Notes: generated by a model from the letters alone, not told the origin. A DNA stretch of 64,000 nucleotides from an uncultured Verrucomicrobiae bacterium (GCA_963708525.1 CAVPTH010000028.1:16873-80872), one strand, 5' to 3'; shown: positions 29,730-52,947, counted from the first letter of the stretch. Translations and numbers: made by a program.

Positions 29730-31599
29730 TCAGGCACCGGCCGGGCCCGGCGGAGTCCGAAAGCTTCTCCACAGGGTCGGTGGCAACATTCCGAGAATGA
29801 TCAACAAAATCTGGCTCAGGACGAAGAAAAGCAAGTACCAGAACGCGGCGGCCATGAAACCATAGCTGTGCAAACCGATACCGAGCATGTTCACGCCGAA
29901 CCAGGACCAGCTCGTCACGATATTGCCGAAGATGACCATGTTCATCAGCCCGCGCTCGCGGATCAGGCCTCCCCAGCGCGCGTGCAGGATGGCGGCATTC
30001 CACAACACGATAAGCAGCGCGCCGTTTTCCTTGGGGTCCCAGCCCCAGAACCGGCCCCAGGATTGGTCGGCCCAGATGCCGCCGAGCACGGTGCCGGTGA
30101 AGCTGAACAGCGCGGCAAAACAAACGATGCCATAAGCCATCTTTGCCAGCACTTTGCCCAATTCCAAATTACCCGATTTATATTTCAACAAAGGCGTGAA
30201 CAGGCCGAGCAACACATACGTAACGCCGAGCAGCCCGGCCATGAAGGTTGAGGCATAACCGAGCGTGACGACGACAACGTGCGTGGCGAGCCAGAAATTG
30301 GTGTCCAACACCGCACGGAGCATTTCCATCGTGTCACCGTCCATCGACAGGTTATGGGCGATGATCAGCGTGATGAAACCTGCGAACGAGGCCACGGCGC
30401 TGCCGAGGCCAACGGCGAAGACGCGTTCCAGGATAATCCCCAGAACCACGCAACCCCAGCCGATAAAAATTGCCGACGAATACAGGTTCGTGACCGGTGG
30501 CCGGCCTTCGAGCCACATGCGAAACACCAGGCCGAACGTGTGGATGATGCCTCCCAGCACCACCAGCCAGAACGCGGAACGCCGGAAAATTTCGGAAAGG
30601 TTTCGGTGCCAGAGCAAACGTCAGCAGCGCAATGACCGCCAGCAAAAACGCCGTCACATAAATCACAATGGCCTTGTAGAACGGCTCGAATTCATTGAAG
30701 AAATACTCCTGCGCGCCGTGCCGGGCTTCCGGTGCGAACCATTGGCCGAGCCAATTGCGATAATTGTCCAGGGCCTGGTTGAAGGCGGCGGGCTGGTTTT
30801 GATTGTAGGCCGTGGCCATGGCCGCGTAATCCTTCACCGCCGGGCTGAGGTCGTTGCCCCGAACAACGCTCATCAGGTTCTGCCCGATGTTTTGCCAGTC
30901 GGCGCGGGATTTCGCATCCGAGGCCGGCGGAACCATGAGGGGATAGGCGTATTTTGACAGGTCGTTGTAGCTGGAGAGAAAGTCGAGCAGCCGGCTGAAG
31001 GCCGCCTGATCATACTTTTTGCCCGCTTCACGCGCCTGCGCCGCGGCCACGCCGTCGGGTATGGCCTGCTCATACGCCGCCAGTTGGCCCGCAAAATCGG
31101 TCGTGCCCGGCGGGCAAAGGCTCAATTTCAATCGCTGATCAATTTCCAGCGCGTTGTCGAGTTTCAGCAGCTGTTGTTCAAACACGGTGCGGTTGGCGTC
31201 TTCAACGTTGTTGATGCGCGCCGCCTGTTTGGAAATGTCGTCCAGGTGCGGCTGGATCTGGTCGAAGGAATAATATTTTTGCGCTTCCGGCAAATGCAGC
31301 AGGTTGAGCAGCTCCAGATTATCAATGCGGAAAATGTTCTGCCGGTTGGCGGCGTCCGGATTCATCATGGTTTCCATCAGCCACGCGGTGGCGCTCAGTT
31401 CGCCGACGCTTTGGCGCTGGCGGATTTGCAGGAGTGTGTTGCGCGCCACCGAATCGAGCGGCTGGATCCGTCCGTTCAACAAAACCGGCAACTGGCCAAA
31501 TTCGCGCGTGTGGAAACCGGTTTCCGGCGGGGGACGCAGCGCGGACAAAACCCACCCGGCAAAGACCGCGACCAGGATCCAGGGAATAATTTTTTTCAT
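29730..31599 (-). CDS. ccsA: System II cytochrome c synthase CcsA with large N-terminal periplasmic domain (frameshift near 30605)
   Basis: WLATHV, GGIWADQSWGRFWGWDPKE (WWD domain), GLHSY; N-terminal GRIQPLDS. Confidence 0.9.
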
Positions 31600-32741
31600 G
31601 ACAGTCTCCTTCTCAGAAAGGGAACCAGGTGCGACAGGAATTGCACCACCATGCCTGTCGCAATCAGAATGCAGGCCAGATACGGCGTGAGCCAGCCGGG
31701 GTTTTTCACGACTTGCAGGACGCTGCCGGCGTTGTCCGGATCAAAGCTGGCCTGGTAAAAGGTCCGGCCGTCGTAACGCAGGGGATTATTCATGTAAATC
31801 AACACTTCACGGCGTTCGCCGGTGTCCGGGCGGTTGAGCAACAGTTGGCTGGAAAAATTTTTCGGAATGTCCGTGCCTTGATAAATATCGTGATGGAATT
31901 TGAGCAGGCGCAGGCTGAAGGGCAGATAAAAACGCACCGGCCGCAGTTGCAGTTGATAAGTGTGGCCGCCGGCGTTGAAGGTCTGCGGTTGTTCCAGCCA
32001 TTCTGAAACCAGCCAGGTGCCGACCGAATCCTGCGGGGTCACGATTTCCACCAGGGCCGACGGCATGTCCCGGCGGTCCATGGCGGTTTCGCGCGGCTTC
32101 GGTTTCCACCATAAACCGGCGCCGAAACCGGAATCTGCGTTGACCCGCGCCAGGCCGGATGCGGCATTGGTGGACAGCTCGGAGTTGGGGTAAAATTCTT
32201 TTACGCGAACGACGAACGGCAATTGATCGTTGTGGACGTCACCTTTTTTGGCCAGCAACCATTCGGGAATGGCCACCACGATTTCAAGCTTTTTGTCCGT
32301 GATATCAGTGACGGCCAGTTCATCCACGCGCTCGGCCTCGGAATAATTTTTCATCTGGCCCTCGCGCAGGTGCATCTGGCTTTCGACGGCGAACAGGTCG
32401 GTGGCAAGCTGGCCGAGAATCAGCAGAATCAACCCGGCGTGAATGATCCAGAGGCCGATTTTATCGCGGGTCAGTTTGAACCGGCTCAGGTGGGCCGCGA
32501 TGAGGTTGATGAGCAGCGTCGCACCGATCAAATAACCGCCCGGGAACACCGGGATTTTCCAGGTCGCATTGGCCGGATGCCAATAGATGAAAAAGCTGCG
32601 GAAAAATTCCGCCTGCGCCTTGTAAAGTCCCAGATGCACCTCGGCGAGCGTGCCGATAAAAATAAGCACCAGGGACAACACCAGCAGGACAACGGTCAGC
32701 CGCAGCGACGTGAAAAATTTAATGAGGCCATCAAGGAGCAT
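31596..32741 (-). CDS. ccsB: System II cytochrome c biogenesis protein ResB/CcsB
   Basis: SLRLTV, IHAGL, PKNFSS, MNNPLRY, FYQASF. Confidence 0.85.
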   Translation of the reverse strand: MLLDGLIKFFTSLRLTVVLLVLSLVLIFIGTLAEVHLGLYKAQAEFFRSFFIYWHPANATWKIPVFPGGYLIGATLLINLIAAHLSRFKLTRDKIGLWIIHAGLILLILGQLATDLFAVESQMHLREGQMKNYSEAERVDELAVTDITDKKLEIVVAIPEWLLAKKGDVHNDQLPFVVRVKEFYPNSELSTNAASGLARVNADSGFGAGLWWKPKPRETAMDRRDMPSALVEIVTPQDSVGTWLVSEWLEQPQTFNAGGHTYQLQLRPVRFYLPFSLRLLKFHHDIYQGTDIPKNFSSQLLLNRPDTGERREVLIYMNNPLRYDGRTFYQASFDPDNAGSVLQVVKNPGWLTPYLACILIATGMVVQFLSHLVPFLRRRLS

Positions 32742-33858
32742 TGGAATACCTCGCCGTCTGCACAAATTTGGTGAAAGCGTCCTTCTGGTCGGCAACGACT
32801 TTTTCGTCACCCTTCAGTTTATAAAACCAGGTCTGGTCGCCCATCGGGACCATGGCGGCGATGAGCCGCGTGTCCTGTCCGGACATGTCTTTGCCGGTCA
32901 GGTCCACAAAAGTCGCCTGTCCGCCGGCCACAGCCACCATCGTGGTCAGTTTGGCCAGACCGATTTCGTCCACCGGATCCAGGCCAATTTGTCCGCGCCA
33001 GCGGTTCACATTGGGCAGCACGCCGCCGCCATTGCCGCTCAACTGGGCGACATTCACTTCGGCCTTCGCGCCGTTGGCACCGGCAATGGAATATTCAGCC
33101 AGGAGGAATTGTGCCGCCGGTACTTCCTGCCAGCCGGCGGGGGCGGTCCAGGCCGGTTTGCCCACACCCGCCGGTTCCGCCGACAGCACCGATGCATTCT
33201 GGTCCCCGCCGCCAATGGGCGGATGTCCGGGCGGCAATGCCCCGGTCGGCGTTGCCGTGGAGAAGGTCAGCGATTTGAGAAAAGCGGCAAACTGCGGTTT
33301 CTGTTGTTCAACCAGTCCGGCTTCACCGGTCATTTTAAAAAACCACGTCGTCCCGCTGCGATCCTGCATGGCGCCCAGAATACGCTTGGCATTGTCGCTG
33401 CCGACGATGTCATAGAGTGTTCCCGGTTGGTCGCCGACCTGGACCGCTTCGCCCATTTTCTGCAGTTCATCCGCTGTGGCCGCCGACAAGCCTGCCTGGC
33501 CTCGCCAGCGGTTGACATTCGCGGTGTCACCGCCGGCTGAACCGGGGAGAGGCACCACAGTCACCTCGGCTTCTGCTCCGTTTTGGCCGATTACTTTAAA
33601 TGAGGCGATGCTCATCGCGCCGGGCGCGGTTTCGGTCCAGCCCTCCGGCAGTGTCCAGTGCAACTGTGGTCGCGCGGCGCTGTTATCGTTTGGCGCGGTC
33701 GCATTAGGAGGTGGAGCAGAGGAGGAGGAATCATCATTGGAGAGGCGATAGACCTGGACGTTGTCGCGGCCACAACCGGTGAGCATGGCAGCCAACAGCA
33801 CCAGCCCCAGCCGGGTTTGGAGAGGAGAACGGCTGGAAGCCAAAGACATAGAATTCAT
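32731..33858 (-). CDS. Lipoprotein with internally duplicated domain, upstream of ccsBA
   Basis: LTGC lipobox; two copies of WTxPxGW…NVNRWRGQ…TWFxKxxG; linker LPPGHPP. Confidence 0.75.
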   Translation of the reverse strand: MNSMSLASSRSPLQTRLGLVLLAAMLTGCGRDNVQVYRLSNDDSSSSAPPPNATAPNDNSAARPQLHWTLPEGWTETAPGAMSIASFKVIGQNGAEAEVTVVPLPGSAGGDTANVNRWRGQAGLSAATADELQKMGEAVQVGDQPGTLYDIVGSDNAKRILGAMQDRSGTTWFFKMTGEAGLVEQQKPQFAAFLKSLTFSTATPTGALPPGHPPIGGGDQNASVLSAEPAGVGKPAWTAPAGWQEVPAAQFLLAEYSIAGANGAKAEVNVAQLSGNGGGVLPNVNRWRGQIGLDPVDEIGLAKLTTMVAVAGGQATFVDLTGKDMSGQDTRLIAAMVPMGDQTWFYKLKGDEKVVADQKDAFTKFVQTARYSNAP

Positions 33859-34203: not shown

Positions 34204-35676
34204 CTACAACGTGCCGTCGTGACAATCGTTGCAGCTGTTGTCGATATCGCCGGCCGGATGTTTAAACGGCTGGCCCTCGGGCGTTAATTGCTGCAGCTCC
34301 GGGCCGCTGCCCTGTGCCAGGATAACATGGCAGGCATTGCAACTGGCCGTGATGACCTTGCCGTCGGCGGATTTGTGACTGCCGTCATGGCAGCGGAAAC
34401 AGCCGGACCACAACAAGTGTCCGATATTGTCCGGATAAGCTCTCCAATCGGATTTCATTTTCGGGAAGAAATTGTCCCCATAAATCCGTTGCACGACTGA
34501 AATCACCTGGGGAATGCGCGGGTCATCGGGGTAATGTTCGGCCAGCACGGTGGCGATGCCTTCCCGGGCTTCCGAGTCGGTATCATATTTGCGCGTGAGG
34601 ACGTAGACGGCATTGGTTTTGATCCAAGGCAGGGTGCGCGGTATCTGGCCGAGGTTGATGGCGAGATCCACCGCGTCGTCCGGCGACATTAACCGGTGGG
34701 AAGGACGATTGTGGCAATCGATGCAATCCATTGTGCGAATCTGGTGTTGGCTGACGTCGTTGGTGAAGTTGGGCAGGTGATAGACGGTCACTACGCCCTG
34801 TGCATCCGTCATCCGCACCCAGGGGATGTTCTGCCGCATCGGGTCCTTCGCGACATACTCCACCCGGTTACTGGTTGACGTGTGCCAGTGAATGCCGCCC
34901 ACCGGACCAGACAGAGGATCACTGCCGCCAACCTTGACCGTCATGCGAATCGAATAAGGCGTATTCGAAACATCGCTCAGAAAGTAATAAAAAGTTTGAT
35001 CCAGGTTCCCGACGAATTGCCTGGGCCAATGGCATTGCTCGCAGGTTTCGCGCGCAGGACGCAGGTTTTTGATCGGGGTGGGAATGGGACGCGGATATTT
35101 GTCGAAGAGGGTCGCGTATATCTGGTAGGAACCGGAAAGTTTGGACCGGACAAACCAGCTTGCGCCCGGCCCGATATGACATTCTGCGCAGGCCACCCGC
35201 GCGTGCGGCCCCAGCGCGTGAGCGGTCAATTCCGGCTTCATCACCGTGTGGCAGGTCTCGCCGCAAAATTCCACCGACTCGGTGAATTGATAGGAGTTGT
35301 AGCTGCCCACCGCCGAAAGCAGGAGGAAAAACACGGCCCCGGCAAGGAAGATCGCCATGTTCCGCCGGTCCCGCGGACGGGAGAGATCAACCTGGACCAT
35401 GGATATCAAGGAGGCGCCTCCCTTCCGCCGGCGCCGCTCGCGCAACTCCCCAAGCACCGTTAGAAACAATCCAAAAACCAGAAAGGCGGGCACCACCATC
35501 CAGGTCAGTATGCTGATATAGGGATTCGAGAAGTGCGCTACCGTGTCCAGAATGAACAACTGGATGAATGAGAAGAGGGCGCCGATGACGGTAACCAATC
35601 CTGTCAGACTCAGCCAGTTGCGCAACAAGGACGGCCGCGAGGTCCGGGGCTCCGGGTTTTCTTTGTTCATATTCAA
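34204..35676 (-). CDS. NapC/NirT-family 7-heme inner-membrane cytochrome (ImcH-like)
   Basis: 3 N-terminal TM segments; CGETCH, CAECH, CEQCH, CIDCH, CFRCH, CNACH, CNDCH. Confidence 0.85.
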   Translation of the reverse strand: MNMNKENPEPRTSRPSLLRNWLSLTGLVTVIGALFSFIQLFILDTVAHFSNPYISILTWMVVPAFLVFGLFLTVLGELRERRRRKGGASLISMVQVDLSRPRDRRNMAIFLAGAVFFLLLSAVGSYNSYQFTESVEFCGETCHTVMKPELTAHALGPHARVACAECHIGPGASWFVRSKLSGSYQIYATLFDKYPRPIPTPIKNLRPARETCEQCHWPRQFVGNLDQTFYYFLSDVSNTPYSIRMTVKVGGSDPLSGPVGGIHWHTSTSNRVEYVAKDPMRQNIPWVRMTDAQGVVTVYHLPNFTNDVSQHQIRTMDCIDCHNRPSHRLMSPDDAVDLAINLGQIPRTLPWIKTNAVYVLTRKYDTDSEAREGIATVLAEHYPDDPRIPQVISVVQRIYGDNFFPKMKSDWRAYPDNIGHLLWSGCFRCHDGSHKSADGKVITASCNACHVILAQGSGPELQQLTPEGQPFKHPAGDIDNSCNDCHDGTL

Positions 35677-35950
35677 TGCATTATCAAAGTCGGGTTCCGT
35701 CTTTCAGGCTGCAGTTTTCCTGCATTCAGACTTTCCGTCTGACCACCGTATATTTCCATGCCGGCCATCACCATCATCGCTTCTGTGAGCGGTCGAAGGG
35801 ACGAAAATTCCCATCCTTCACACCAGGAAATTGACAGGTCTTATTGGAACCGGCGTGGCTAATCTTGCCAAAAGCCCAACCTCTTTGGCAAACGCGAACG
35901 CCCGGAGAGTTCCCTGAATATCTTTGGGAGGGCGATCCACTTCTGACAGG

Positions 35951-37190
35951 TTATGCCGCGCCGCGATCGTGCGCGGCAGGTGCGCTGACGGGCAGACGTT
36001 CGGACAGAAACAGTTTCACCAGCACCGTGAGAATGATGAACGGCAGGCACATGATGACGGCACTGATGAGCCAGCCTTCCTGTCCGGCAAACTCCATCTT
36101 GTAACTCATCACGCCGCGCAGGCTCTTGGAGAAAAACTGGCCGCCCATGACCACGTTCCAACGCATGGCCAGCACGCCGATCAGGATCATCGCGGCGCTG
36201 CCGAAAATCATGCGCCGCCGGACCAGCTCCGGCACGCGCCGGCGCAGAAGCTGAAGTAACCCCAGCAGCAACAGCGGTACCAACGTGCCGATGATCACCT
36301 GGCCGATGTTCAGCGTGTAAAAAAGTTTCTCACGGATCATGGTCTGCAAAACCGCGAACCCTTCCTCTGCCGCGAAACCGCGATGCAGCACGTCCAAAGT
36401 TTCCACGACCGCGTCCACCACCAGCGCGTAGAAGAGAAACATCGCCATCGTGTCCAGGCAGCGCATGTCCACGGTCTTGCGGCGAATCCAGGTCAGGACC
36501 AGGTAATTGAATACGCACAGCGCGATGCCGGAAACGATGGCGGACAGAATAAACATGATCGGCATCAGCACATTGCCCCACCAGGGATTGGCCTTGATGG
36601 ACCCGAAAATGAAACCGACATAGCCGTGCAACAAAAAGGCTGAAGGAATTCCGACAATCGAAAGGATCCATTCCATCTTCATGTCCAGCCGGACACTTTG
36701 CTCCGACACATCGGTCACCCCCAGGGTCAGCGCCCGATAGAGGACGCCCTCGAAAGCCAGGGCGTGACTTCCGACCATTTCACCAGGTCCTGCCGGAAAT
36801 CAAACCACAGTTCCAACAGCAGGACCGCCATCAGATACCAGGCATAAACAAAGCCGAAAATCGCCATGGGCGAAGTCAGGTGCGGGGTCATCATGATTTC
36901 GTAGTAGCGTTCCGGATGTCCCAGGTGGAACAGAAGTGGCAACGTCGCGCAGAGCAGGAAGGCAAAGCGCGGTCAACATCGAAAGCCGATACACCGGCTC
37001 CAGCGCCTTGACATTGAACACGCGCACCAGCGAGGCCATGATGAAGGCGCCCGCCACCAGTCCGGTGATGTAGGGATAAATGACAATCAGCGTGCTCCAG
37101 AGCGGATGAAGGGTGGCTTCATTGGGATACACATAACCTTGAAAGGTGGGGATCGCTTCCACCACACTATTGGTCAATCCAGTTGGTCAT
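35951..37190 (-). CDS. NrfD/PsrC-family quinol-interacting membrane subunit (CbcU-like; several frameshifts)
   Basis: YPYITGLVAGAF, HLGHPER, TSPMA.FG, LHGYVGFIFG, SAIVSG, RWNVVMGGQ across three ORF pieces. Confidence 0.82.
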
Positions 37191-37999
37191 CTATACCTCC
37201 TTGTCCAGCCCGGCGTACAGGACGCGCGGACTCGGTTCCCAGATGCGGCTTGAGCACCTGCGTGCGGTTGCCTTCATAAAATTTCCGGAGCGGATCGTCC
37301 GGCTGGAGATTCTTCAAGTCGCCGAAAATGCGCGCCTCCGCCGGACAAATTTCCACACACGCCGGTTTCAAGCCGCGGGTAATGCGATGATAACACAGCG
37401 TGCATTTCTCGGCCGTGTTGGTGGCCGGACTTAAAAACCGGGCAGCCATACGGGCAGGCTTGAACGCAAAAGGCACAGCCAATGCAGTAATTCGTGTCAA
37501 TCAAAACCGCCCCGTCCGGCGCCTGGAACGTGGCGCCCACCGGGCACACCTGGACGCAGGGCGGGTTTTCGCACAGATTGCACAGCTTGGGCACAAAGAA
37601 CGATTGCTCGATCTGGTCTTCCGCCACCGGACACTCCGGAAAGCCGTGCATTCCGCCGTCGGGCGAATCCACCAACGTTTCACCGCGGGTTTCCGCCGAG
37701 CCGGGTTTCGGCTTGGTGATGACGTAACGCTCGACCCAGGTGCGGTAATAAGGTCCTTGGGGGACGTCGTTTTCCTTCTTGCACGCCTCGGCACACAAAC
37801 CGCAACCGATGCATTTGGTGGCGTCAAGGCAGATCAGCCATTTGTGCGCAGTCGGGTCGTAACCCTTGGGCGCGCCGGAAGAGGTGAAGAAATTTTGCAC
37901 TGCCGCTTTGGCGGTGCGCGCCACGGGGAGCGCCAGCACGCCCGCAAGGATGGCGCCCATGCGGGCGAGCGCGCCGCGCCGGTTGAATTGGGTTTTCAT
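37191..37999 (-). CDS. 4Fe-4S (NrfC/DmsB-type) subunit with Tat signal (CbcT-like; frameshifted)
   Basis: FNRRGAL twin-Arg; CIGCGLCAEAC, CNLCENPPCVQVCP, CIGCAFCVQACP, CTLC…CVEICP. Confidence 0.87.
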
Positions 38000-38448
38000 G
38001 GGCTTTGGCTGGGTTGATGCGGCAGGTGGCAGTCGGTGCACTTGTCGCCATAGTGATTTTTCACCACGATTTGCTTGAACCAGGCGGGCCGCGACGGATT
38101 GGCCTCGTGACAGCGCAAGCAGAGACTTCCCGGCACCTTGGTCGGAACCACGTCGTGATTGAGCGCGTGCTCGCGATTCGGGCCATGACAGGCTTCGCAG
38201 GAAAGGGTCTTGTGTTCGAATTTGTCGAGCTTGTGCTGGGTGTCGGCGTGACATTCATCGCACGACTTTTTTCCGGCAAAGACCGGTGTGCGCGAGGCGA
38301 TTTCCTCCAGCGCCGCCCCGCGATACCATCCGTATTCCCCAAACGACTCCGGCACGAGCAGCGCGCGTCCGACCAGATAGGTTCCCACGATGGCCAGGGT
38401 CAGTAACACCAGCCGAAGAATCTGCGGTGGTAATCTGAAGCGGCGCAT
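37996..38448 (-). CDS. Membrane-anchored tetraheme cytochrome c (CbcS-like)
   Basis: N-terminal TM; CDECH, CEACH, CLRCH, CTDCH. Confidence 0.85.
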   Translation of the reverse strand: MRRFRLPPQILRLVLLTLAIVGTYLVGRALLVPESFGEYGWYRGAALEEIASRTPVFAGKKSCDECHADTQHKLDKFEHKTLSCEACHGPNREHALNHDVVPTKVPGSLCLRCHEANPSRPAWFKQIVVKNHYGDKCTDCHLPHQPSQSP

Positions 38449-38471: not shown

Positions 38472-38811
38472 TTACGATTTGATACTGCGCACGTGGGTAA
38501 TCAGCGCCTTGATTTCGTCGTCATTCAGTTTGTCGCCGAAGGCCTTCATCTTGAGCTGGCCGTCCTGGGTAATGCCTTCCTTGATGGCCTTGGCCGCTTG
38601 GTCGTCGGTGAAGGACGCCTGGGCTTTGGGATCAGTAAAGTCCTTGATCTGCAGCTTGCGGCCGATCGTGGTCAGTCCTTTGCCGTCCTTGCCATGGCAC
38701 ATGGCGCAATCTTTATCCCAGTTTTGCTGAGCGTCACCCGCCGCCGCTGTCCCAACAACGCGCACCTGCCAGCACTGACGCGACCACTATCATTTTTATT
38801 GGAGTTTTCAT
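38472..38811 (-). CDS. Class I monoheme cytochrome c (frameshift in signal region)
   Basis: CAMCHGKDGKG, distal Met in KMKAF. Confidence 0.82.
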
Positions 38812-39336
38812 AACAAGAATGGTTCTAACCAGATTTTCGCACGGTCTCGGTTTACCTGAAAACCGGGCCTCTCAGGCTCGTTCTTATCAACGGGAGAACA
38901 TATCCCCGTTTAACGACCATCCCGGAATCGGACGCGGTTTTCACTCTGTAAGAACACTCCAGCAAAACCTAAGGTAATGCTTACCTTCCCTTGTTATTTA
39001 CTATGCTAAAATTGATTAACGCATAACAATAAAAAGTTATTATATTGTATCAATAAATCAGTTAAATTGATTATTAAAGACAAGATGATTAAAACGCTGG
39101 AATTTCTTCCGTTGGCGGGTCACAAAACCGGACCGGGTCATGTATTCACCGGTCGATAACTGCCGATGGCGGAGCAAAGAAGCCAACCCCGTGCGCCGGC
39201 GATGAATGCGCCGGCATTTCCCGGTTATTTACCTGCTTGAGTCGCGACAACACTTCACCGCCAGACTGACCCGCACCGGGTTTACTTTGGCGTGTCGGTC
39301 CGCGTCCGATCTGGTGACCGGGGCTGAAAGGGTGTT

Positions 39337-39694: not shown

Positions 39695-39807
39695 AATTGC
39701 TCCACTAAAGGATGTTACCGGGTTCTTGTCAAATCAAACCTCCGTTGCCGGTCCGCTGCCAACGGGCGCATCTTGGCACTATCCTTGGACGGGAAGTCCG
39801 TGCCGAG

Positions 39808-39913
39808 AATCATCGGGCGACTGGAAAGTCGCCCGAACCCGCGGACAGGAATGTCCGCGCTACGTAGCGCAGGCTTTCCAGCCTGCGGGTTCCGGGGACT
39901 TTCCAGTCCCCGG
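39808..39913. repeat. REP-like palindrome cluster centred on GCTACGTAGC
   Basis: cgggcgactggaaagtcgcccg, gcggacaggaatgtccgc, gcaggctttccagcctgc, ggggactttccagtcccc. Confidence 0.75.
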
Positions 39914-42584: not shown

Positions 42585-42591
42585 AATATGG

Positions 42592-43287: not shown

Positions 43288-45465
43288 TTAAAACCGGTAT
43301 TGCAGGGTGGCAAAAATCAGGTTGGCTTTAAAACTGTTGAAACCGGCGGAAGCCGTATCCACGTAGTCATAGAAACCGTACCTTAAACTCGCCCGCAGGT
43401 TTTGGGTGATCCGGCGGGTGAGCGTGGCGTTGACGCCATTTTCATACGCCCCGGCGCCCAAGGCCACGCCGTTGGGGGAGTTGTTCTGATAATCGTCCGC
43501 CTGGTAGTAGAAATAGGTCACATTCAGGTCGGTCTTGTCGTCCACGACAAAGTCCGAGGACAAGTTCACCGTCCAATAGTTATTCTGCGAGTTCAGGACG
43601 GCGTTCGTAATTTGCGTGACGGGTGTTTTAGTCTCGCTCAAGACGTAGTCCAGGCCCGCCTGCAGGCTTAACCGCGACCACGGCGTCCAGGTGGCGTTTC
43701 CCCCGATAATCTGGCTGGGTATCTTGCGGACTGGACCTCACTTAATCCCGAGGCCGGGTCCGGCTGGGTATTCACGGTGGAATACTGGTACTCATAACGT
43801 CCGACAAAAGTAACGTTCTGAACGGGATGCACCGTCACCCGGACGTTACCGTCATAGGTCTGGAAATTCTGCATGGAAAAGTCGTTGACCGCATTGTTTG
43901 TCGGATTGGTGTAGTTCCACTGGTTGTTCTGGTAATAGCCGCCGATGTCGATCGTGAGCCGGCGGAGCGGATACCAACGCGCCCCGATGGAATATTTCTG
44001 GAAGAAACGATTATCGTCAGTTTCACCTGCCGCGAGGTTGGTTGAGACACCAATGCCGTTTACCTGCGTGAGACCGCCAGATTGATTTAAGTTACCCTGG
44101 CCCTGGTCCCATTCTCCACGAGCATAAAGGACCCAATTGGTTATGCCCGTGTACCGCGCATCCAGGCTTTCGGCTACGTCAATGACGTCCCGCGAGCTTT
44201 GGCTGCTGAACGGGTCCGTCGGAAAGGTGTTCAAGGTCCCGGTGCCGCTCGAAGTCCCGTCCCAATTTTCCTGCTGCACCCGAATGGCTGGAATAATGGT
44301 GACGGTTTTTAGGGGAATGGTCATCAGATTCATGTCCAGCACGTACCTCTTCATATGCGTATCGCCGACCAGATTGGTGTAACCGAGGCCGCTGGAGGCG
44401 TCGGGCACGTAGGGTACATTGAAGCCGCTGCCATAAATCCGGTCGCCGGAAAGATCGTTGTCCAGGTTGGCAAACAGGAAGCCGGTTGAAAAGAGCAGGT
44501 TCGGATTCATCCAGGTCTCGCTGGAGGCATTGAGGTCGAACAAGTCGTAGGTGGTTTTCTGCCGGTCGGTGACATAAGCGGCGTTTGGAGGTGCCGGGTC
44601 GGTCAGGTAACGCGTCGTATAGAGCGCGTCGTTCAGGTCGGCTGTTTGATAACGCAGACCCAGGGCTAGGTCGGTTTCCTTGACGTGTTGCGCCGCGTTC
44701 AGTTGGAACGTGTCAATCTTCTCGTTTATGTCGTAAAAGCTCGGCCCCAGTCCTTGAGTCAGGGTTGGATCGACAAACAGATCAGGATGCACCGGGCTCC
44801 AGATGGTTGAACTTTTCTGGCCGTCACGGTAGCTGTGCGTGTACTTGAAGGTGAGGGCGGGAAGTTTTTGCAGGGTCAAGCCGCCTTCAAAAGAGTATTC
44901 GCCGCGATCCAACGCCAGGGCTTCGGGCGAACCTGAGTATTCGGTTCCCGTGGGCGGATAATAGCCGCCGGCGTCATTATACCAGGTACGGAAGTTCTCG
45001 AAATTGAACTTGAGGAACCAGAGGTCGGGATGTACCAGCCCCAGTTTCAACTGGTAATCGTGGTCGTCAATAATTGAACGGCCGTCCAGGGTGAACAGCG
45101 TGTTGCTGAAGGCGTTGGCCTGGTAATGCAGGTCTTCGATCCCGCCAAAAGCGCCTGTACCCATATGCAGGCTTTGCTCGTGCCTGTGCCTTGTTGCCGC
45201 TGGTCATCAGGCCGCCGCCTGTAAGCGCAATCCAGTTGTTGTAGGTGCTGGGACCGCCTTCAAAGTAATCCTGCGGCGATAACGCGGGACTGTTGGTGTC
45301 GTCGGCCAGTACGCGGACGCCAAAGGTCAGCAGCAAAATTCCCGTCAGCCAAAATGAGCCCCGACGCGCCGGGCCGGAGGCTGGCGTTCCTGCCGCGCAC
45401 GGGAAGACCGTCTGCGCTCGGGTGGAATCCGAAGGTCGCGGCTGGTTTGGTTGAAAGGGTTTCAT
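43288..45465 (-). CDS. MtrB/PioB-like outer-membrane beta-barrel porin (two frameshifts, near 45170 and 43700)
   Basis: ~725 codons, signal peptide, GGIEDL, amphipathic beta strands, terminal ATLQYRF; directly follows an MtrA-like cytochrome. Confidence 0.82.
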
Positions 45466-45477
45466 CTTCGGCGCCAA

Positions 45478-46359
45478 TCAAAATTGGAGTTGCGGGTTAA
45501 CGCGCGAGCCGTGCACGGCCTCGTGGCAACCGGCAGTCCAACAGGTGCCCTGGGACAGGCGCCCCGTATGGTTCGAACCGCCGATGAGAAGCTGGCCGCC
45601 GGTTTGCTGGACGAAATGGCATTTCAAACACAAATTCGAATTCCGCTGGGCTAACAGCTTGGCATTGACCGAGCCGTGCGGGTTGTGACAGCTGGTACAG
45701 CCTTCACGCAGGGCTTCGTGCTCGAATACGAACGGGCCTTGCTGGGCCGGATGACAACGCAAGCACATGTCATTTTCGGAAAGCAGTGAAGTCCCGCCAC
45801 CGGCGGAAATGGAACCCTTGTGCGGGTCATGGCAATCAGAACACTTCATCCGGCCTTCGGGCACGGGATGATGGTTGGGAAGATTGAACTGTCCGCGCAC
45901 GTCCAAATGGCACGTGTAACAGACCGTTTCCTCCGAGCGCGCCGATTCCACCGCCACGTGCGCGCCGTAACTGCTCGCCTCGCCACGACCGGCGGTGAAA
46001 ATGTACGGAGGTTTCGTGTCGCCACCCGATTCCGAATGGTTGCTGCACGGTCCGTGACAGGACTCGCACCCGGCATCCAGCGCGTTGGTTCCCTGGGCCA
46101 TCAGACGCGCATGATCGGCGGTGGCAAAATCCTTGTAGATATTGTCATGGCAGGTGTCGCATTGTTCGGAGCCGATGTAGGTGGCACCCGGCACATTGGG
46201 CAATACCACCACACTGCGGTTGAGGGTGCCGCAGGAAATGACCACCAACAGTGTGGCCATCACAATCCCTGTCAACGCCAGCCATCGCTTCCAGCCGTCA
46301 GGCTGCGTTGCTGTTTTTCCCCAAATGAGCTTCAGCATATTTTTGTCGGGCAGCTTCAT
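45478..46359 (-). CDS. MtrA/DmsE/PioA-like periplasmic multiheme cytochrome, 8 hemes, lipobox
   Basis: CDTCH, CESCH, CYTCH, CSDCH, CLRCH, CTSCH, CLKCH, CWTAGCH; GPFVFEH, CHNPHGS; VVISC. Confidence 0.88.
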   Translation of the reverse strand: MKLPDKNMLKLIWGKTATQPDGWKRWLALTGIVMATLLVVISCGTLNRSVVVLPNVPGATYIGSEQCDTCHDNIYKDFATADHARLMAQGTNALDAGCESCHGPCSNHSESGGDTKPPYIFTAGRGEASSYGAHVAVESARSEETVCYTCHLDVRGQFNLPNHHPVPEGRMKCSDCHDPHKGSISAGGGTSLLSENDMCLRCHPAQQGPFVFEHEALREGCTSCHNPHGSVNAKLLAQRNSNLCLKCHFVQQTGGQLLIGGSNHTGRLSQGTCWTAGCHEAVHGSRVNPQLQF

Positions 46360-48209
46360 TGGAATAATTGGCCGTCCACAAAGGTCTGGGCATCCTGCAA
46401 AAGTTTACTGTCGTAAGGCCGGTTATGGACACCGAAACTGCCGTCGTAAAAGACGAGGTACAAGTCAAACCGGGCCTTGCGAATATCCACCGGAATGTTG
46501 TTGGTTTGCTGCATCGAATTCGGGCCGGGACTGCCCGAAGACAGATCGCCCGGCGTCGTATATTCCCACGCGAGCGTTCCGTAGTTGGTCCGCAATACGT
46601 CGGGCGCCTTGTTGGTGGCCCACATGTCCAGCAAGGCTTTGGTTTGCAGGACCTGGTTCGAGATAATATTGGCTGTGAACTGCACCAGTCCCCCGGGATT
46701 GGGGTGACAGTTATAACAAGCGGTGTAGGCGGCCACTTCGAACGTGTGACCGCTCATATTATCCGGGCCCGACTGCAGATGGCACGCGGTACACTGCATT
46801 TCGAGTTTGGAGTGAGTGGAGGGGAAGTTCGGGTTAGTCCCCTCCACCACCACACCGACCGTGCCCAACAACATGTTGTATTGCGGCGAGTGATGGGGCG
46901 AACGACTCGTATCCGTCCAGGCCGCGCCGCGGTCGTTGTGGCACTGGGCGCAGACATTGATGGCGGGATTATATTTGTTCGAGAACACGTCCGAGGTGGT
47001 CAGGTAAAAATCGTTGGTTGAGGCAAACGCATTACGGAGCTGGTTGGTGTAGAGCAGTCCCAGTTCGTTGTTGGTGATGGTGGCGGTGATGCCGGTCAGT
47101 TGGTTGCTAAAGGCGATGACTCCGTTCAGCACGTTTGTCCAGACGTTTTCGCCGTGCGGTTCGTGGCAGACGGCGCAGGTGATGGCCACATTGAAATCAT
47201 TGGTCAGCGTCACCGGGTTTTGACCCTCCAACAAGGCCTCGCGGGCGGAACCCGAATGGCAGCGGCCGCAATTGTTGATGTTATTTGCGGAACTGGCCAT
47301 GGATTGAAGCACGTCTGGCACCACGGCTCCATGCGGCGACACGCTCCAGTCCTCAAAACCAAAACCCAGCGGATGTCGGGTAACAACGGACGCGGGGGTG
47401 AGTTGAGCGCTGTGGCAACCCCCGCAGACCTGGGCGGCCAGTTCCACGCGCGGTATGACCGTTTGATCGCCCGGATTGGCCGCATGATTGCCACCCGGTC
47501 CATGGCAATTCTCGCACTGCACGCCTTCCAGTTGCGGGGTGAGCACCGCACTGGTAAATCCCGTCGACAAACCGTACCCCACCGTGTGGCAGGGCAGACA
47601 ACTGGGATTGGTGTCCTGATGAATGCGTTGAAGTCCTGCAAAGGCTTGCGCATGCGCCGTGGTCATTACGGTGCTGTGAACGTTCCCGTGGCACTGGGCG
47701 CAGGTTTGCTCACCCGCGTAACGCGGCCCCGGGCCGGAGACCCGGAAAAACGCGTTGCTAGACAGGTTAGTAATGGTGGTCGTGCGGTTCAGGTTGAAAT
47801 TGCCTAACGGTTGCCAGGTTCCGCCCGGCAACTGCGATTTCTGGTATAGATGGTAGTAGCCGGACGGACCATCCCACGTCAGCGTGACGCCATTGGTGTT
47901 CTTCTGAATGCCCGTCATGACCGGGAGGCCAGGCATTCCGCCGGGTTGTGTGACGGTGAGATGTGGAACGCCTTGCGCGAAACCGGACAAATCGCTCAGG
48001 CAGAAACCGGCCACCGCAAATAACAAAACTACCGCCTGTGTGGCCACCCGGATTGGGGTAGGGTTGATAAACCATGAAGGCCGTTGGGCAGGCAAATTAC
48101 GTCTGGCAACGGTTGAAACCATCTCTGGGCAAGTGATGCTTATAAGGCGACAGCATACTGTAAAGTCTGCTGAATACGAGTAACTTATGAGTTGAAATTG
48201 AGCCTTCAT
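46356..48209 (-). CDS. 9-heme secreted cytochrome c (true start probably near 48050-48120)
   Basis: CAQCH, CLPCH, CENCH, CGGCH, CGRCH, CAVCH, CAQCH, CTACH, CYNCH; PHHSPQ, DGSFGVHN. Confidence 0.9.
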   Translation of the reverse strand: MKAQFQLISYSYSADFTVCCRLISITCPEMVSTVARRNLPAQRPSWFINPTPIRVATQAVVLLFAVAGFCLSDLSGFAQGVPHLTVTQPGGMPGLPVMTGIQKNTNGVTLTWDGPSGYYHLYQKSQLPGGTWQPLGNFNLNRTTTITNLSSNAFFRVSGPGPRYAGEQTCAQCHGNVHSTVMTTAHAQAFAGLQRIHQDTNPSCLPCHTVGYGLSTGFTSAVLTPQLEGVQCENCHGPGGNHAANPGDQTVIPRVELAAQVCGGCHSAQLTPASVVTRHPLGFGFEDWSVSPHGAVVPDVLQSMASSANNINNCGRCHSGSAREALLEGQNPVTLTNDFNVAITCAVCHEPHGENVWTNVLNGVIAFSNQLTGITATITNNELGLLYTNQLRNAFASTNDFYLTTSDVFSNKYNPAINVCAQCHNDRGAAWTDTSRSPHHSPQYNMLLGTVGVVVEGTNPNFPSTHSKLEMQCTACHLQSGPDNMSGHTFEVAAYTACYNCHPNPGGLVQFTANIISNQVLQTKALLDMWATNKAPDVLRTNYGTLAWEYTTPGDLSSGSPGPNSMQQTNNIPVDIRKARFDLYLVFYDGSFGVHNRPYDSKLLQDAQTFVDGQLFQ

Positions 48210-48974: not shown

Positions 48975-49176
48975 GGGTTTCTGGCAGCGGTACGTTTTGC
49001 ACCTTTCGGTGGGGCGAGCGTACTCGCGAGCCGACTTGTAAGTAACCTCAATCCACCAAACTATACCGCTACCGGGCTTCTCGATTTTTGGAGAAAAGGC
49101 AGGTTCGTGTCGGCAGGCCAAACCTCCGGGGGAGAGCCGGTGGATAACGTTTTATTAAAGCGGTTCAAGTAATGGC

Positions 49177-49251
49177 GTAGCCGCCGAAGTGACGAGACGG
49201 ATTCATTATTTGGCCGGTAAATCGGGTCCACCTCCTGACGTCGGCGGCTAC
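49177..49251. repeat. REP-like doublet GTAG…CTAC
   Basis: gtagccgccgaagtgacgag … cctgacgtcggcggctac; related to 5876-5945. Confidence 0.75.
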
Positions 49252-49312
49252 AACATTATAGAAGCCAGTCTGGTGTCACAGAAATGGGTTAACACCAGAG
49301 GCATCGAAAGCA

Positions 49313-49376
49313 ACCCCTCACTCGGTCTTCGGCCACCCTCTCCCCGCAAAGCGGGGAGAGGGCAGGGCGAGGGGGC
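49313..49376. repeat. CCCTCTCCCC…GGGGAGAGGG palindromic element
   Basis: ccctctccccgcaaagcggggagaggg hairpin with flanking ccctca…gagggg. Confidence 0.65.
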
Positions 49377-49485
49377 GTTCGTCAGATGCTTCCTGGGTTG
49401 AGTTGTAAAGTAGCGTTGGTTAAATGACACTAGACGTTGGAGGTTGGATCTTCATTGTCGAATCCTGCCGCGGTAATTTGCCAAC

Positions 49486-49517
49486 AAAAAACCCCTCCCG
49501 GTTTAATGGGAGGGGTT
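49486..49517 (-). terminator. Rho-independent terminator after the 49535-51813 cytochrome gene
   Basis: aacccctccc-loop-gggaggggtt followed by a U-tract on the minus strand. Confidence 0.85.
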
Positions 49518-49534
49518 GAAGGTCGGTTCTGCGG

Positions 49535-51813
49535 TTACGGGTTAATCACGACCCGGAAGAACATTTGGGCGTTGGTCCGCGTCGCGGTCAGGTAACTGAT
49601 TGAGTTGCCTGTGCCCGGGAGGGGACTGCCGATGTTTTTCCAGCCGCCGCTCAAGTTGGAAATGCCCTGAATTTGATACAGACTGCCTTGAGTCGTGTTG
49701 AACGCAATCTCAGCGGCCGTGTAAATGGCAATGGTGTTGGTCACTCCTGAATTGATCAGGGTCTTGCCGTTGGCCCAGACCACGCCGCCAGGAACGGTGA
49801 TGCCGGAGGAAGTCGGATCCAGACCCAGCGCATACATCATCCAGTTGGGAACATTATTGGTGTTATTGATGGCATTGGGCGCCGCTTGAGGATTGTTGAT
49901 GGTGCCGAAGTATTGAGTCTGCCACGAATCAGGCAGGCCGTCATCATTGGCGTCGCCGGTCAGATTCGCGATGGATGCCTTGAGCAATCCCACTGCATAG
50001 GCGGTGTTGTGGATTCCCAGGCTGCCGTCGTTGTGCAACGAACATCCAGTTGAAGGCCGCTTCCAGTTGGGTTGCGTCCAGGTGGAACTGACCGACAGCG
50101 ACGATTTCACCGACTGTCCGCCACACCGGACGGGAGATAAGCTGACAACTGGTTCAGCAGACCCTGCACTTCAGTTTGAACACCCTGGATGACGCCGTCG
50201 CCATTATAATCCTGCAACGGGAAGTCAAATGAGGTGACCGAGGCGCCGTGGCATTGCTGGCAGGCCGGCCACGATGTCTTCGCCATTGTGCGAGTTTACA
50301 AAGGTATGGCTGCCGGCATGCAGATAGGCCGGATCCGTTGAGGCAAGCGTCTGCATATGGCAAGTGACGCAGGTATTGGAAACCGCATGGGCGTGGGCCG
50401 AGCTGGGGATGATTTGGCCGTAGGTAAAGGCATTGACTCCTTCGATCATGTCCGCTTGCGGCCCGTGGTGCGGGCCCAAAGTTGGCTGTCGGTAAGAAGT
50501 GGAACGTGAAGTCGCCGCATTATTGGGACCGGCTATGATGGCACTGCATACACAGAATGCCTTCGCCCGCGTTGGTGACTACGGTACCGTCCATAAGCGT
50601 TACTGCGGCCATAGTGCGAATGATGTACGGATTGGGCGCATTCGTGCCGGGAAGAGTGGCCCCGTGCGGTTCGTGGCACGTCTGGCAATTGATCGCCATG
50701 TAAGTCGTATTGGTCGTCGCCGATCTGGCAATCCGGCCGACGAAACCATAAGCCGTATGGCACCCCACACAACCTTCGCGGCCCGGACCGGAGGGATCCG
50801 CGTCGTGATGGCATGATCGGAATTTTGCCATTCCGCTACATGAACGTGAGTTGGCGGGGCGTCATGGCACTGAGCGCAGTCGCCGGAGCCAAGGCTGATG
50901 GCGATCAGATTGGTTTTACCGAAGGTGCTCATGTGCTGGCTGCCGGGTCCATGACAATTTTCGCATTGGATATTGCCCACGTTGGCGACAACCGGATAAT
51001 TGGTCTCCATGCTCGCCCAGTTGCCGTGCCACCAGGTTGGTTGGGAAAATCCAGCCGTACTGCGTCGCCATGTCGTCAAAGCCGCCGTTGACGGCCAGCG
51101 CATTGGTGTCATAACCGACCGTGTGGCACGGGAGGCAGCTCTTGCTGTAATGGCTGCTGACCAGCCCGTCGATGCCGCGGGCAAACATCGAGGAATGGGC
51201 CGTGGTTTCCCAAGGGCACAACCATGTTGGTCGCGATTTGTCCTCCACTATGGCACAGGGCGCAGCCGGAAGTGTTCGGCAACAAACCAACGCCCATATA
51301 TGTGCCTGCCGTGATCGTGATGGTCAGGTTGGTGGTTCCCGCATTGGACGTATAAACCGTGGCCGTCACTTTATATAGGTCGTTGGTGGTATAACCCGCC
51401 ACGTCCGGACGCAACAACATCCGGCCTGCCACCCGGTACATCAGACGGTCGGAGGGCTCATACACCGGTACGTTCGTGCCCAGCGGGCTGGCCTGCAGCG
51501 CGACCCCCGAGCCGACGGGCTTTTGGGCCAGCGTCCAGACAATGTTGGTCACGTTCGGCACGGAGGAGTTGGTGGCGACGTCAATTTCAAGATAAACCGG
51601 CTGGCCCACACCCACGTTTAACAGGCCGCCCGAAGCCTCCAGAGTTGCGGGCAGCGCATAGTTGGTATTGGCGATTTCGCCCGGGGTGAGCGGGCGCGCC
51701 ACCAATTGGGCTGAAAGATTGGTTTGGGCCTGTGCGGTGAAAGTGGCGTTCAGAGCCATCGTTGCCGCCCCTAAACAGGCCAGCCAGGTTTTAATGGAAG
51801 GTTTCATAGTCAT
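49535..51813 (-). CDS. 9-heme secreted cytochrome c with C-terminal DGLPD repeat and FFR domain (several frameshifts)
   Basis: Signal peptide AQA-Q; CALCH, CLPCH, CENCH, CAQCH, CVGCH, CQTCH, CMQCH, CVTCH, CQQCH across pieces; PHHGPQ, DGSLGIHN. Confidence 0.83.
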
Positions 51814-51843
51814 CTCACACTGTTGGGTTATGGGGATTCTTGA

Positions 51844-52947
51844 TCATGCGAATCGGGCTTGTGGTTGAAAACCAGTCGGGTTCAGCACGGCTTCGACGTG
51901 GTAAAGGGAGCGAATGCCGGCTTTTAAAATCTTTTCTGAAGCGGGTCTTATCTTGAGCATCACGGCCGCGGTCCGGTCGGTGATGATGGCCCGGCAGCGC
52001 GCCAGTTCCTGTTCGCGGCACTTCGTGTTCTCGCGCACAATGCTTTCCAGATCGTCAATATCGTAGAGGAACACATTGTTTAATTCCTGTACCGCCGGAT
52101 CAATGTCTCGCGGTACGGCGATGTCCACGAGGAACAACGGGCGGTTGCGGCGGGCGGAAAGGATCGAAGCCACATCTTCACGGTGCAAAATGGTGTGGGG
52201 TGAGCCGGTCGAACTGACCACGATGTCCGCCATCGCCAACGCCTGCCGACACTCCTCAAACTGCACCGCGCGACCGCCGAATTCCGCCGCCAGGTTTTGG
52301 GCGCGGTCGAAGGAGCGATTGGAAACCAGTACCGTGTGCGCGCCGCGCTTGGCGAGGTGGCGGACGCAGGCTTCGCCCATTTTGCCGGCGCCGATGATCA
52401 TCACGACTTTTTCGCTCAAGTCCCGGTCAAAAATCCGTTCCGCCAGCTCCACGGCCACGCTGCCCACCGAAGTGGCTCCGCGACCGATGGCGGTCTTGCT
52501 GCGGATTTCTTTGGCCACTTGCAGGGCCGTTTGGAAGACGCGGTTCAAGGTTTTACCGGTGAGCCTGGCTTCCTGGGCGGAAAGATAAGCGTGCTTGACC
52601 TGCCCGGTGATTTCCGTTTCACCGAGCACCATCGAATCCAATCCACTGGTAACCGAAAACAAATGCTGGATCGCTTCTTCCTCTTCCTTGAAGTAGAGGT
52701 ACGGAGAAAAATCAAAGTCACTGCCGCTCAATTGCCGGAAAAGCCCGTTGATGTCCCCCTTTAGCCCCGACGTCACACCATAAATTTCCACCCGATTACA
52801 GGTGGAGAGCAACACGACTTCGGAGAGATTGCCGTGCAGTTTCAACCGGCAGCCACTACAGAGCAATCGCGACCGGTGCACCGCGAGTTGTTCGCGGACT
52901 TCGACCGGCGTGGTCTTGTAACTTAAACCGGCGACAAACATTTTCAT
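51844..52947 (-). CDS. hemA: Glutamyl-tRNA reductase
   Basis: LSTCNRVE, SGLDSMVLGETEITGQ, GAGKMG, DIAVPRD. Confidence 0.95.
   Translation of the reverse strand: MKMFVAGLSYKTTPVEVREQLAVHRSRLLCSGCRLKLHGNLSEVVLLSTCNRVEIYGVTSGLKGDINGLFRQLSGSDFDFSPYLYFKEEEEAIQHLFSVTSGLDSMVLGETEITGQVKHAYLSAQEARLTGKTLNRVFQTALQVAKEIRSKTAIGRGATSVGSVAVELAERIFDRDLSEKVVMIIGAGKMGEACVRHLAKRGAHTVLVSNRSFDRAQNLAAEFGGRAVQFEECRQALAMADIVVSSTGSPHTILHREDVASILSARRNRPLFLVDIAVPRDIDPAVQELNNVFLYDIDDLESIVRENTKCREQELARCRAIITDRTAAVMLKIRPASEKILKAGIRSLYHVEAVLNPTGFQPQARFA

Follow-up and report, generated by a model that had tools for sequence, protein, structure and literature searches.

A predicted Mtr-like extracellular electron transfer cluster with an accessory hemA paralogue in an uncultured Verrucomicrobiae bacterium

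A stretch of 64,000 nucleotides from an uncultured Verrucomicrobiae bacterium (GCA_963708525.1, CAVPTH010000028.1:16873-80872; in our numbering G000:C28:16873-80872), hereafter the window, carries between positions 29730 and 52947 a dense cluster of genes for multiheme cytochromes, a porin, heme attachment and a glutamyl-tRNA reductase paralogue that we call hemA2. The assembly it comes from, G000, comprises 3.43 Mb in 35 contigs and is 72.7% complete. We analyzed this cluster as a follow-up to an original prediction made from the sequence without database searches. Judged from its genes, the cluster probably encodes an Mtr-like extracellular electron transfer route, which stands beside inner-membrane entries and maturation genes. 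The original prediction was right on function, and wrong on autonomy and novelty.

In the route that we propose, menaquinol would be oxidized at the inner membrane by an ImcH-type heptaheme cytochrome, and a second menaquinol oxidation module would consist of a Cbc4-like NrfD subunit, a Tat-exported iron-sulfur (FeS) protein and an anchored tetraheme cytochrome. The periplasm would be crossed, probably via two monoheme cytochromes c, and electrons would pass to an MtrA-family octaheme inside an MtrB-like barrel of ~715 amino acids (aa). From there they would exit via one OcwA-like and one MtrC-like nonaheme cytochrome to Fe(III), humic quinones or particulate organic matter. The resB and ccsA products would attach the hemes, and hemA2 would probably channel more flux into heme synthesis while the 39-heme set is being produced.

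The predicted route and its direction

Gene identities were taken from open reading frame (ORF) calls together with Pfam and NCBIfam searches of the window and of intact orthologues. Every gene that the original prediction named between 29730 and 52947 was found in its place, and its count of 39 heme-binding motifs holds as well: following the minus strand, which carries every cytochrome gene of the cluster, the motifs add up to 7 + 4 + 1 + 1 + 8 + 9 + 9. For the second nonaheme the nine motifs are scattered over six frame fragments in the window, and the intact orthologues of three relatives have nine each. The rest of the window (41 kb), read in six frames, holds just four stop-to-stop segments with one CXXCH apiece, and the motif density of the cluster is far above chance.

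The outer-membrane conduit was analyzed first by fold. The porin has 912 homologues among 8000 candidates scored, ~715 aa long when intact and for the most part unnamed or 'hypothetical'. An AlphaFold2 (AF2) model of P0002, which is 90% identical to the middle piece of the window's porin, was built from a 60-sequence alignment and is all-beta, with 29 strand elements, a predicted local distance difference test (pLDDT) score of 79.5 and a predicted template modeling score (pTM) of 0.74. Its top match in the PDB is MtrB (6r2q_B; E = 1.7e-16, template modeling (TM) scores 0.62/0.68, 11% identity), and the remaining PDB matches are TonB-dependent transporters with TM scores of ~0.4. By its modeled fold the porin is a large MtrB-like barrel, with family membership by sequence left without a match. 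The original prediction had offered to give way if this product were anything other than a large beta-barrel, and the model points to the barrel.

The adjoining octaheme had been called MtrA-like, and the label is borne out by its matches to MtrA itself (6r2q_A; E = 3.3e-27) and to the DmsE/MtrA family TIGR03508 (165.6 bits, E = 1.4e-48). Its eight heme motifs are invariant in 11 of 11 aligned orthologues, and it has a conserved lipobox-like V-I-S-C43. We regard it, on these comparisons, as a true sequence homologue of MtrA. When barrel residues 60-711 and octaheme residues 44-293 were modeled together with alignments of our own making, the complex scored 0.87 while the best of three controls scored 0.00. 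On the benchmark for this score the mark is reached by 58 of 80 complexes with a solved structure and by 2 of 110 mismatched pairs; because the alignments were our own, these counts apply here only approximately. Contact agreement between runs was at least 67%, the partner pLDDT at least 72, and the 410-425 contacts run along the barrel strands, placing the cytochrome inside the barrel. The score may reflect likeness to the solved MtrAB structure 6R2Q rather than give independent proof of binding.

Both candidate surface reductases resemble proteins of known structure or domain type. The first nonaheme matches OcwA (6i5b_A) with E = 9.5e-17 over residues 203-290, and PF22113 with 31.5 bits; the orthologue of the second carries MtrC/MtrF domains II/IV (PF22113, 54 bits against a cut-off of 30). 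The two are 24-28% identical to each other and are thus distant paralogues.

At the inner membrane, the heptaheme protein has transmembrane segments at residues 20-50, 52-80 and 105-128, with CX3CH directly after the third and six CXXCH thereafter. This is the published architecture of ImcH, i.e., three N-terminal transmembrane helices, then CX3CH, then six CXXCH (statements on published work refer here and below to the parts of each source that were available). In Geobacter ImcH the residues conserved around heme 1 are E127, K173, Q179 and Y188, relative to H137. The window's protein has E133, K179, Q185 and Y194 at -10, +36, +42 and +51 from its heme-1 His143, so that the spacing of the quinol-site residues equals the Geobacter offsets exactly. 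It also has a NapC/NirT match in Pfam and an NrfH match in the PDB. By these sequence features we assign the heptaheme as an ImcH-type inner-membrane quinol oxidase.

The second entry is a trio of genes. The tetraheme has one N-terminal transmembrane segment as an anchor; the FeS protein has a twin-arginine (RR) leader, and its orthologue matches TtrB, DsrO and NrfC; the intact orthologue of the NrfD subunit is 412 aa long and matches PF03916 with 131.6 bits. The trio has the operon layout of Geobacter Cbc4, in which CbcS is described as an anchored tetraheme, CbcT as a multi-cluster FeS protein and CbcU as an integral membrane subunit, all in one operon. The ImcH-like and CbcSTU-like modules of the original prediction are thus borne out by the heptaheme's architecture and residues and by the layout of the trio. 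The role of Cbc4 itself is unproven, a cbcS mutant being reported to grow like the wild type.

Both monohemes carry signal peptides and are the sole candidate periplasmic carriers in the cluster. Their genes (38472-39694) are tandem paralogues; the relative G015 has a single gene there, and one soil contig joins 38594 to 39473 (short side 21 letters), as if the monoheme pair had collapsed.

Where labeled, the porin homologues are mostly from Verrucomicrobiae, Verrucomicrobiota or Limisphaerales bins, and the organism's relatives bear verrucomicrobial labels and occur in soil and rhizosphere runs, in line with the verrucomicrobial soil or sediment organism that had been thought probable. None of the 24 runs found was listed as RNA.

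Several observations weigh against an Mtr-like route of this make-up. The porin pieces and the intact orthologue match no Pfam or NCBIfam family. The octaheme's score for TIGR03508 lies under the curated cut-off of 192.2 bits, and its score for NF041028, the GSU2203 family, is 185 bits against a cut-off of 325. Two homologues are labeled as non-verrucomicrobial bins, Acidoferrales (for the porin) and Limnocylindrales. Among relatives with long contigs, ImcH is on other contigs than the porin or 200 kb away from it in G017, G019, G029, G036 and G040, and G010 has ImcH and NrfD and no porin match. Finally, class I monohemes are found more typically in Mto systems, which oxidize Fe(II), so that the outward direction of flow stays a proposal.

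The same parts could accordingly be read as an inward conduit, in which extracellular Fe(II), reduced humics or a cathode would be oxidized as by MtoAB/PioAB, the monohemes would be carriers for a terminal oxidase, and reverse flow through the NapC/NirT-type proteins would supply the quinone pool; the conduit might also be bidirectional. The combination of two class I monohemes with a CymA/NrfH-like tetraheme speaks for it, and the set resembles mtoA-mtoB-mtoD-cymA of Sideroxydans. Mtr-type conduits are, moreover, reported to be reversible. We nevertheless consider the inward reading rather unlikely, since ImcH homologues have so far been recorded only in Fe(III) reducers in the available literature, reducers typically have two large surface multihemes such as the OcwA-like and MtrC-like pair here, and Limisphaera isolates reduce Fe(III). 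Outward flow, from menaquinol to an extracellular acceptor, is the reading that we keep below.

Frameshifts and the assembly

Mapping against intact orthologues and three-frame reading reveal at least 16 frameshifts in the cluster, distributed over ccsA, NrfD, the FeS protein, both monohemes, the porin and the second nonaheme (Table 1). ImcH, the octaheme, the first nonaheme, resB, hemA2 and the tetraheme are intact. The breaks are most likely errors of an indel-rich assembly, and because of this the cluster is probably functional in the organism.

To compare the cluster with the remainder of the genome we took from 20 contigs of G028, the closest relative, 252 ORFs with a length of 200 aa or more and kept the 192 whose best match in the window's genome was at least 75% identical, dropping 60. 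Of these, 29 (15%) are frame-changed, with 41 changes over 247 kb (0.17 per kb). Three of the 20 loci have no qualifying ORF; in the other 17 the rate per locus lies between 0 and 0.57 per kb, and by the same measure the cluster has ~7 changes in ~17 kb, i.e., 0.41 per kb. The density of gaps at the DNA level against G028 is a noisy measure, with 1.48 per kb across the genome and 2.62 per kb for the cluster. Of 523 1-kb intervals, 280 have no frame-breaking gap at all, and the tail extends up to 16-19 per kb in sequence that is otherwise 93-96% identical. Against the same relative, 12-19 frame-breaking gaps per kb are seen on contigs C2 (~15.4-17.4 kb, with 93-96% identity otherwise), C9 (~380.7-382.7 kb) and C5 (~64.4-65.9 kb), bursts that suggest patches of poor assembly consensus. 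In the flank of the cluster, the housekeeping gene rpiB is split as well (57393-59565, minus strand), with positions 2-58 and 56-138 of PF02502 in separate ORFs, the first part at the end of a low-molecular-weight phosphatase ORF and the second at the start of the glyA ORF. A completeness of 72.7% in 35 contigs fits widespread broken marker genes.

The substitutions within the broken genes provide a second line of evidence. Third codon positions account for 60% of mismatches in the second nonaheme, 64% in the porin and 68% in ccsA, and for 55% and 68% in the intact first nonaheme and octaheme. Because these shares are alike, the broken genes have been under purifying selection. Outside the breaks the amino-acid identity is 82-98%.

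The cluster was also compared with short-read assemblies, namely Logan contigs, 93-99% alike, from four soil or rhizosphere runs. In this comparison unbroken stretches (e.g., 34598-35732, 43900-44951 and 46041-47843) have no gaps, and broken stretches (e.g., 36862-37390, 38977-39859 and 49356-51852) have 3-30. The second nonaheme has 24-30 gaps per 2.4 kb.

Three points tell against an assembly artefact. The cluster is denser in breaks, with at least 16 in 23 kb and eight outside the second nonaheme, than the flanks, with ~3 candidates in 41 kb. The indels sit in short runs rather than long homopolymers, and no specific type of sequencing error is recognizable. The call itself relies on orthologues and relatives' contigs, not on the assembly's own reads. 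If the frameshifts were real, this strain would have lost the cluster recently to an array of pseudogenes, the second nonaheme being most decayed, and the high density of breaks relative to the flanks, the gap count of the second nonaheme against the short-read contigs and the position of the indels outside long homopolymers would all be expected. We judge such decay to be distinctly unlikely, given that similar breaks, in bursts, affect 15% of the sampled genes genome-wide, that substitutions in the broken genes fall on third positions much as in intact ones, that amino-acid identity outside the breaks stays high, and that no break is seen in ImcH, the octaheme, the first nonaheme, resB or hemA2. 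With assembly error as the preferred explanation, a caution applies: gene calls and completeness estimates understate the coding content of this indel-rich genome.

hemA2 and the relation to published systems

The product of hemA2 has the GlutR_N and NADP-binding domains of a glutamyl-tRNA reductase (PF05201 and PF01488, 156 bits each) and carries the motifs STCNR and GAGKMG, which we take to serve catalysis and NADPH binding, respectively. The other hemA of the genome is on contig C6 in a hemX-like/hemA/DUF4279/hemC operon, and its product is 46% identical to that of hemA2 over 340 aa, or 53% over residues 83-322.

The two types differ in their distribution. Among 61 relatives (G000 included), the C6 type is present in 58 and the island type, defined as at least 64% identical to the window's copy, in 27: specifically, in 27 of the 39 genomes with ImcH and in none of the 22 without. 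An order-wide sample of 151 genomes, each at least 85% complete, gives 25 of 72 with ImcH and 0 of 79 without. Related genomes are not independent, so that any statistical test on these counts would be overstated. The paralogue spans at least 17 families, and families f16 and f31 show within-family contrasts. No more than 12 kb separate it from ImcH in G047, G081, G085, G113, G121, G155, G172 and G182, and it adjoins ImcH in G023 and G024, which have no strong porin match, and in G011 and G031, in which the porin is present. In many of the genomes it is found either at such a distance from ImcH or beside the surface cytochromes.

hemA2 is a distinct accessory paralogue, and it occurs only in ImcH-bearing genomes of both samples. 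No published description of such a hemA paralogue was found in our literature search; its tie to ImcH is the one feature that we have seen in no paper, and the one lead worth following. We put forward, as a tentative idea that falls somewhat short of probable, that across this verrucomicrobial order hemA2 was taken on as a heme-supply valve dedicated to extracellular respiration through ImcH. Co-regulation of hemA2 with the cytochromes, if it exists, would make this a natural case of heme biosynthesis scaled to the needs of multiheme cytochromes. The original prediction had credited the cluster with its own heme supply and maturation. What stands of this is hemA2 as an accessory paralogue; what does not is the autonomy, since only the first step of the heme pathway is duplicated here, and resB and ccsA are the sole copies found in the genome.

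The core of the cluster, i.e., porin, octaheme and surface cytochromes, is already published for Verrucomicrobia. He et al. (2017; PMC5615132) described this very core in bog Verrucomicrobia, where a porin of 20 or more strands adjoins a cytochrome with eight heme sites and is accompanied by an extracellular multiheme cytochrome; homologues were reported in Opitutus and 'Ca. Udaeobacter'. A preprint by Fiorito et al. (2026) defined the systems EET3 (Palsa-1439) and EET4 (Limisphaerales), with MtrA-, MtrC- and OcwA-like cytochromes, modeled their multimers, showed transcription in peat and examined five genes on either side. The cluster shares with both reports a porin of at least 20 strands, an adjoining eight-heme cytochrome and extracellular multihemes in one cluster, and with these systems taken together the MtrA-, MtrC- and OcwA-like folds with 8-13 hemes and the soil, peat and humic habitats. 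Specifically, it has 29 modeled strand elements, eight heme sites, two predicted surface nonahemes and verrucomicrobial labels. These likenesses were established from the published descriptions. The names 'PCC3' and 'PCC4', the latter used in the original prediction, do not occur in He et al. (2019), in the part available, and the stem 'PCC' occurs twice in He et al. (2017).

The original prediction had suggested that the coupling to inner-membrane modules and biogenesis genes may be the new part, and this part is only partly new. In the main text of Fiorito et al. (2026), as far as available, ImcH, NrfD, ccsA and 'inner membrane' do not occur, and a wider neighborhood may be drawn in the figures or supplements of the published reports. 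ImcH homologues in Verrucomicrobia have already been recorded, and a cave metagenome paper of 2026 reports eight porin-decaheme clusters, six of which also encode ImcH- or NapC/NirT-like proteins. A 2018 survey found no mtrAB/mtoAB adjoining imcH.

The nearest systems of other bacteria differ from the cluster in a number of ways. Compared with Shewanella MtrCAB (6R2Q) and with MtoAB/PioAB, the octaheme is homologous to MtrA, the barrel fold is nearest to MtrB, and MtrC/MtrF domains recur. Unlike MtrCAB, however, the cluster has a barrel with 11% identity to MtrB, an octaheme with a lipobox-like Cys and two nonahemes, one of them OcwA-like, and its cytochrome has eight hemes whereas MtrA, going by its family name, has ten. 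The resemblance to OcwA of Thermincola potens (6I5B) is that of a nine-heme surface terminal reductase, matched in part only by the first nonaheme; OcwA sits on a Gram-positive wall, whereas the cluster's nonahemes are predicted on a porin complex. Compared by published features, ImcH of Geobacter sulfurreducens (GSU3259) and the cluster's protein have in common three transmembrane segments, CX3CH, six CXXCH, a length of ~490-520 aa and the E/K/Q/Y residues; unlike GSU3259, the cluster's ImcH adjoins a Cbc4-like trio and is near a porin-cytochrome conduit. The likeness to Cbc4 (CbcSTU, GSU0068-0070) is at the level of layout and family only, with a NapC/NirT-type tetraheme, an FeS protein and a cofactor-less membrane subunit. 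That porin and octaheme serve a soluble or enzyme-bound acceptor, as DmsEF does for dimethyl sulfoxide reductase, instead of mineral or humic respiration is very improbable, because for all that the octaheme's best NCBIfam matches are the DmsE and GSU2203 families, no molybdopterin or other terminal reductase gene is present in the cluster and two surface multihemes adjoin instead.

Verrucomicrobia are abundant in soils, peat and humic waters, and a working Mtr-like route would allow respiration of Fe(III), humics or particulate organic matter there. Such respiration would divert carbon from methanogenesis, an idea that is already in print and is now supported by culture: Limisphaera isolates, which belong to the order, are able to grow with ferrihydrite and ferric citrate as respired acceptors, and this was reported as a first for the phylum. 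To this the window adds a full parts list on one contig, with two putative quinol-oxidase modules, carriers, conduit, two candidate surface reductases and maturation genes, as well as a testable lead, the second hemA paralogue tied to ImcH-based respiration.

Gene inventory and genomic setting

Table 1. Features of the cluster, with positions in the window and mapped frame breaks.
Feature	Position	Strand	Evidence or remark	Frame breaks
ccsA (641 aa in intact orthologue)	29730-31599	-	PF01578, 83 bits	1; extra base near 30600
resB/ccsB, intact	31596-32810	-	PF05140, 56 bits	
Conserved lipoprotein, two tandem PsbP/Mog1-like domains	32731-33858	-	lipobox LTGC	
ImcH-type heptaheme NapC/NirT protein, intact, 490 aa	34204-35676	-	CX3CH + 6 CXXCH	
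NrfD-family integral membrane subunit, CbcU-like	35951-37177	-	PF03916 on both pieces	2; near 36968 and near 36800, stop at 36800-36802
Periplasmic 4Fe-4S protein, NrfC/TtrB/DsrO type, CbcT-like	~37174-37999	-	Fer4_11 and related matches	1; 37445-37482
Membrane-anchored tetraheme, CbcS/NrfH/CymA-like, intact	37996-38448	-	four CXXCH; weak NapC/NirT match	
Monoheme class I cytochrome c (first)	38472-38811	-	PF13442, PF00034	1; near 38780, signal peptide in other frame
Monoheme class I cytochrome c (second), with signal peptide	39340-39694	-	Pfam and frame reading	1; near 39470
Rhodanese	40224-40802	+	PF00581	
MauE/DoxX membrane protein	40799-41296	+	PF07291/PF07681	
Low-GC insert, 1987 bp	41300-43286		between convergent MauE and porin genes	
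MtrB-like outer-membrane porin (predicted), ~715-720 aa when whole	43288-45477	-	fold match to MtrB	2; extra base near 45181, missing base near 43724
MtrA-family octaheme, intact	45478-46359	-	7 CXXCH + CX4CH	
First nonaheme surface cytochrome (predicted), OcwA-like, intact	46356-48209	-	nine CXXCH	
Conserved single-pass membrane protein, coiled-coil tail, 198 aa	48378-48974	+		
Second nonaheme surface cytochrome (predicted), MtrC-like, ~750 aa when whole	49535-51813	-	orthologues with 9 CXXCH	at least 8; between 51216 and 50038, 8 non-multiple-of-3 indels against G028
Accessory glutamyl-tRNA reductase paralogue hemA2, intact	51844-52947	-	PF05201, PF01488	

The cluster had been described as a self-contained island, a description that does not hold. 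Its G+C content (GC) of 0.55-0.59 equals that of the genome (0.55-0.59), apart from a dip to 0.49-0.51 at 40-44 kb, and it is flanked by ribF, infB, nusA and a GH92 gene on one side and by rho, a sigma-70-like gene, rpiB and glyA on the other. On its genome-like GC and housekeeping flanks we reject a mobile or horizontally acquired island and regard the cluster as chromosomal. Relatives also differ in gene order, and some of their long contigs have the inner-membrane genes far from the porin.

Among the 61 relatives, strong porin matches (E <= 1e-85) are found in 31, ImcH in 39 and the NrfD type in 16. The order hemA2-nonaheme-nonaheme-octaheme-porin is kept in the loci of 6 of 10 relatives (G003, G021, G029, G032, G033 and G040). 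In 12 of the 31 genomes with both (G000, G001, G003, G015, G021, G030, G031, G032, G033, G047, G049 and G060), ImcH and the porin share a contig and are less than 30 kb apart, and the full contiguous arrangement is one of several among relatives.

The adjacent ResB and CcsA family domains are those of system II cytochrome c biogenesis. The resB product is 87% identical to the copy in G015 and has four hydrophobic segments, and the ccsA orthologue of G015 is in a single frame. Because the two are the only copies found in the 72.7%-complete genome, they are probably general system II genes. According to Fiorito et al. (2026), most ccm genes are missing in these lineages, which fits a single system II set. 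The ccsA product of ~640 aa has an N-terminal extension of ~350 aa without a family match (29730-31599; L032:8497-10419), and the product of the adjacent resB is short (404 aa) and aligns with the central part of the ResB profile only, so that the ResB/CcsA pair may be split in an unusual way here.

The lipoprotein gene is usually directly upstream of resB among relatives. Its product matches no Pfam or NCBIfam family and has at least 4573 homologues, none of them functionally named. An AF2 model (pLDDT 75) gives Foldseek matches per domain to PsbP, Tsi3 and LpqN. A generic PsbP/Mog1-like double domain allows no assignment of function from fold; the protein may be an accessory factor of cytochrome maturation or of the conduit.

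The rhodanese and MauE/DoxX pair is found with the cluster in 5 of 11 genomes (10 relatives plus the window), and it adjoins the porin or hemA in G015, G032, G021 and G033.

The product of the plus-strand gene between the two nonahemes has one transmembrane helix, a low-complexity linker and a coiled-coil tail, with no Pfam or NCBIfam match. Matches by tblastn were obtained in 9 of 20 locus pieces, corresponding to 9 of 10 relatives, always on the opposite strand and between the two nonaheme genes. It may encode a regulator or an assembly factor of the cluster.

The insert between the MauE and porin genes has a GC of ~0.49, no ORF longer than 105 aa and no second copy in the genome, and it is probably a decayed foreign insertion. 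DUF3800 is its only family match, a borderline remnant at 42267-42584 with 21.3 bits (cut-off 21), and Rfam gave no match at gathering score over 27000-56000. Its absence in relatives is taken from G015, in which 64 bp separate porin and MauE; the short-read joints that skip the insert have sides of 25-28 letters.

Two dispersed intergenic repeats were also noted, a palindromic one of ~175 nt at ~39761-39939 and one of ~108 nt at ~49155-49263; repeat stretches also lie at 48983-49060 and 49264-49383. Each of the two elements has ~10 or more copies on other contigs of the genome, and at their positions the soil metagenome contigs show depth peaks of 4-6 fold and many joints.

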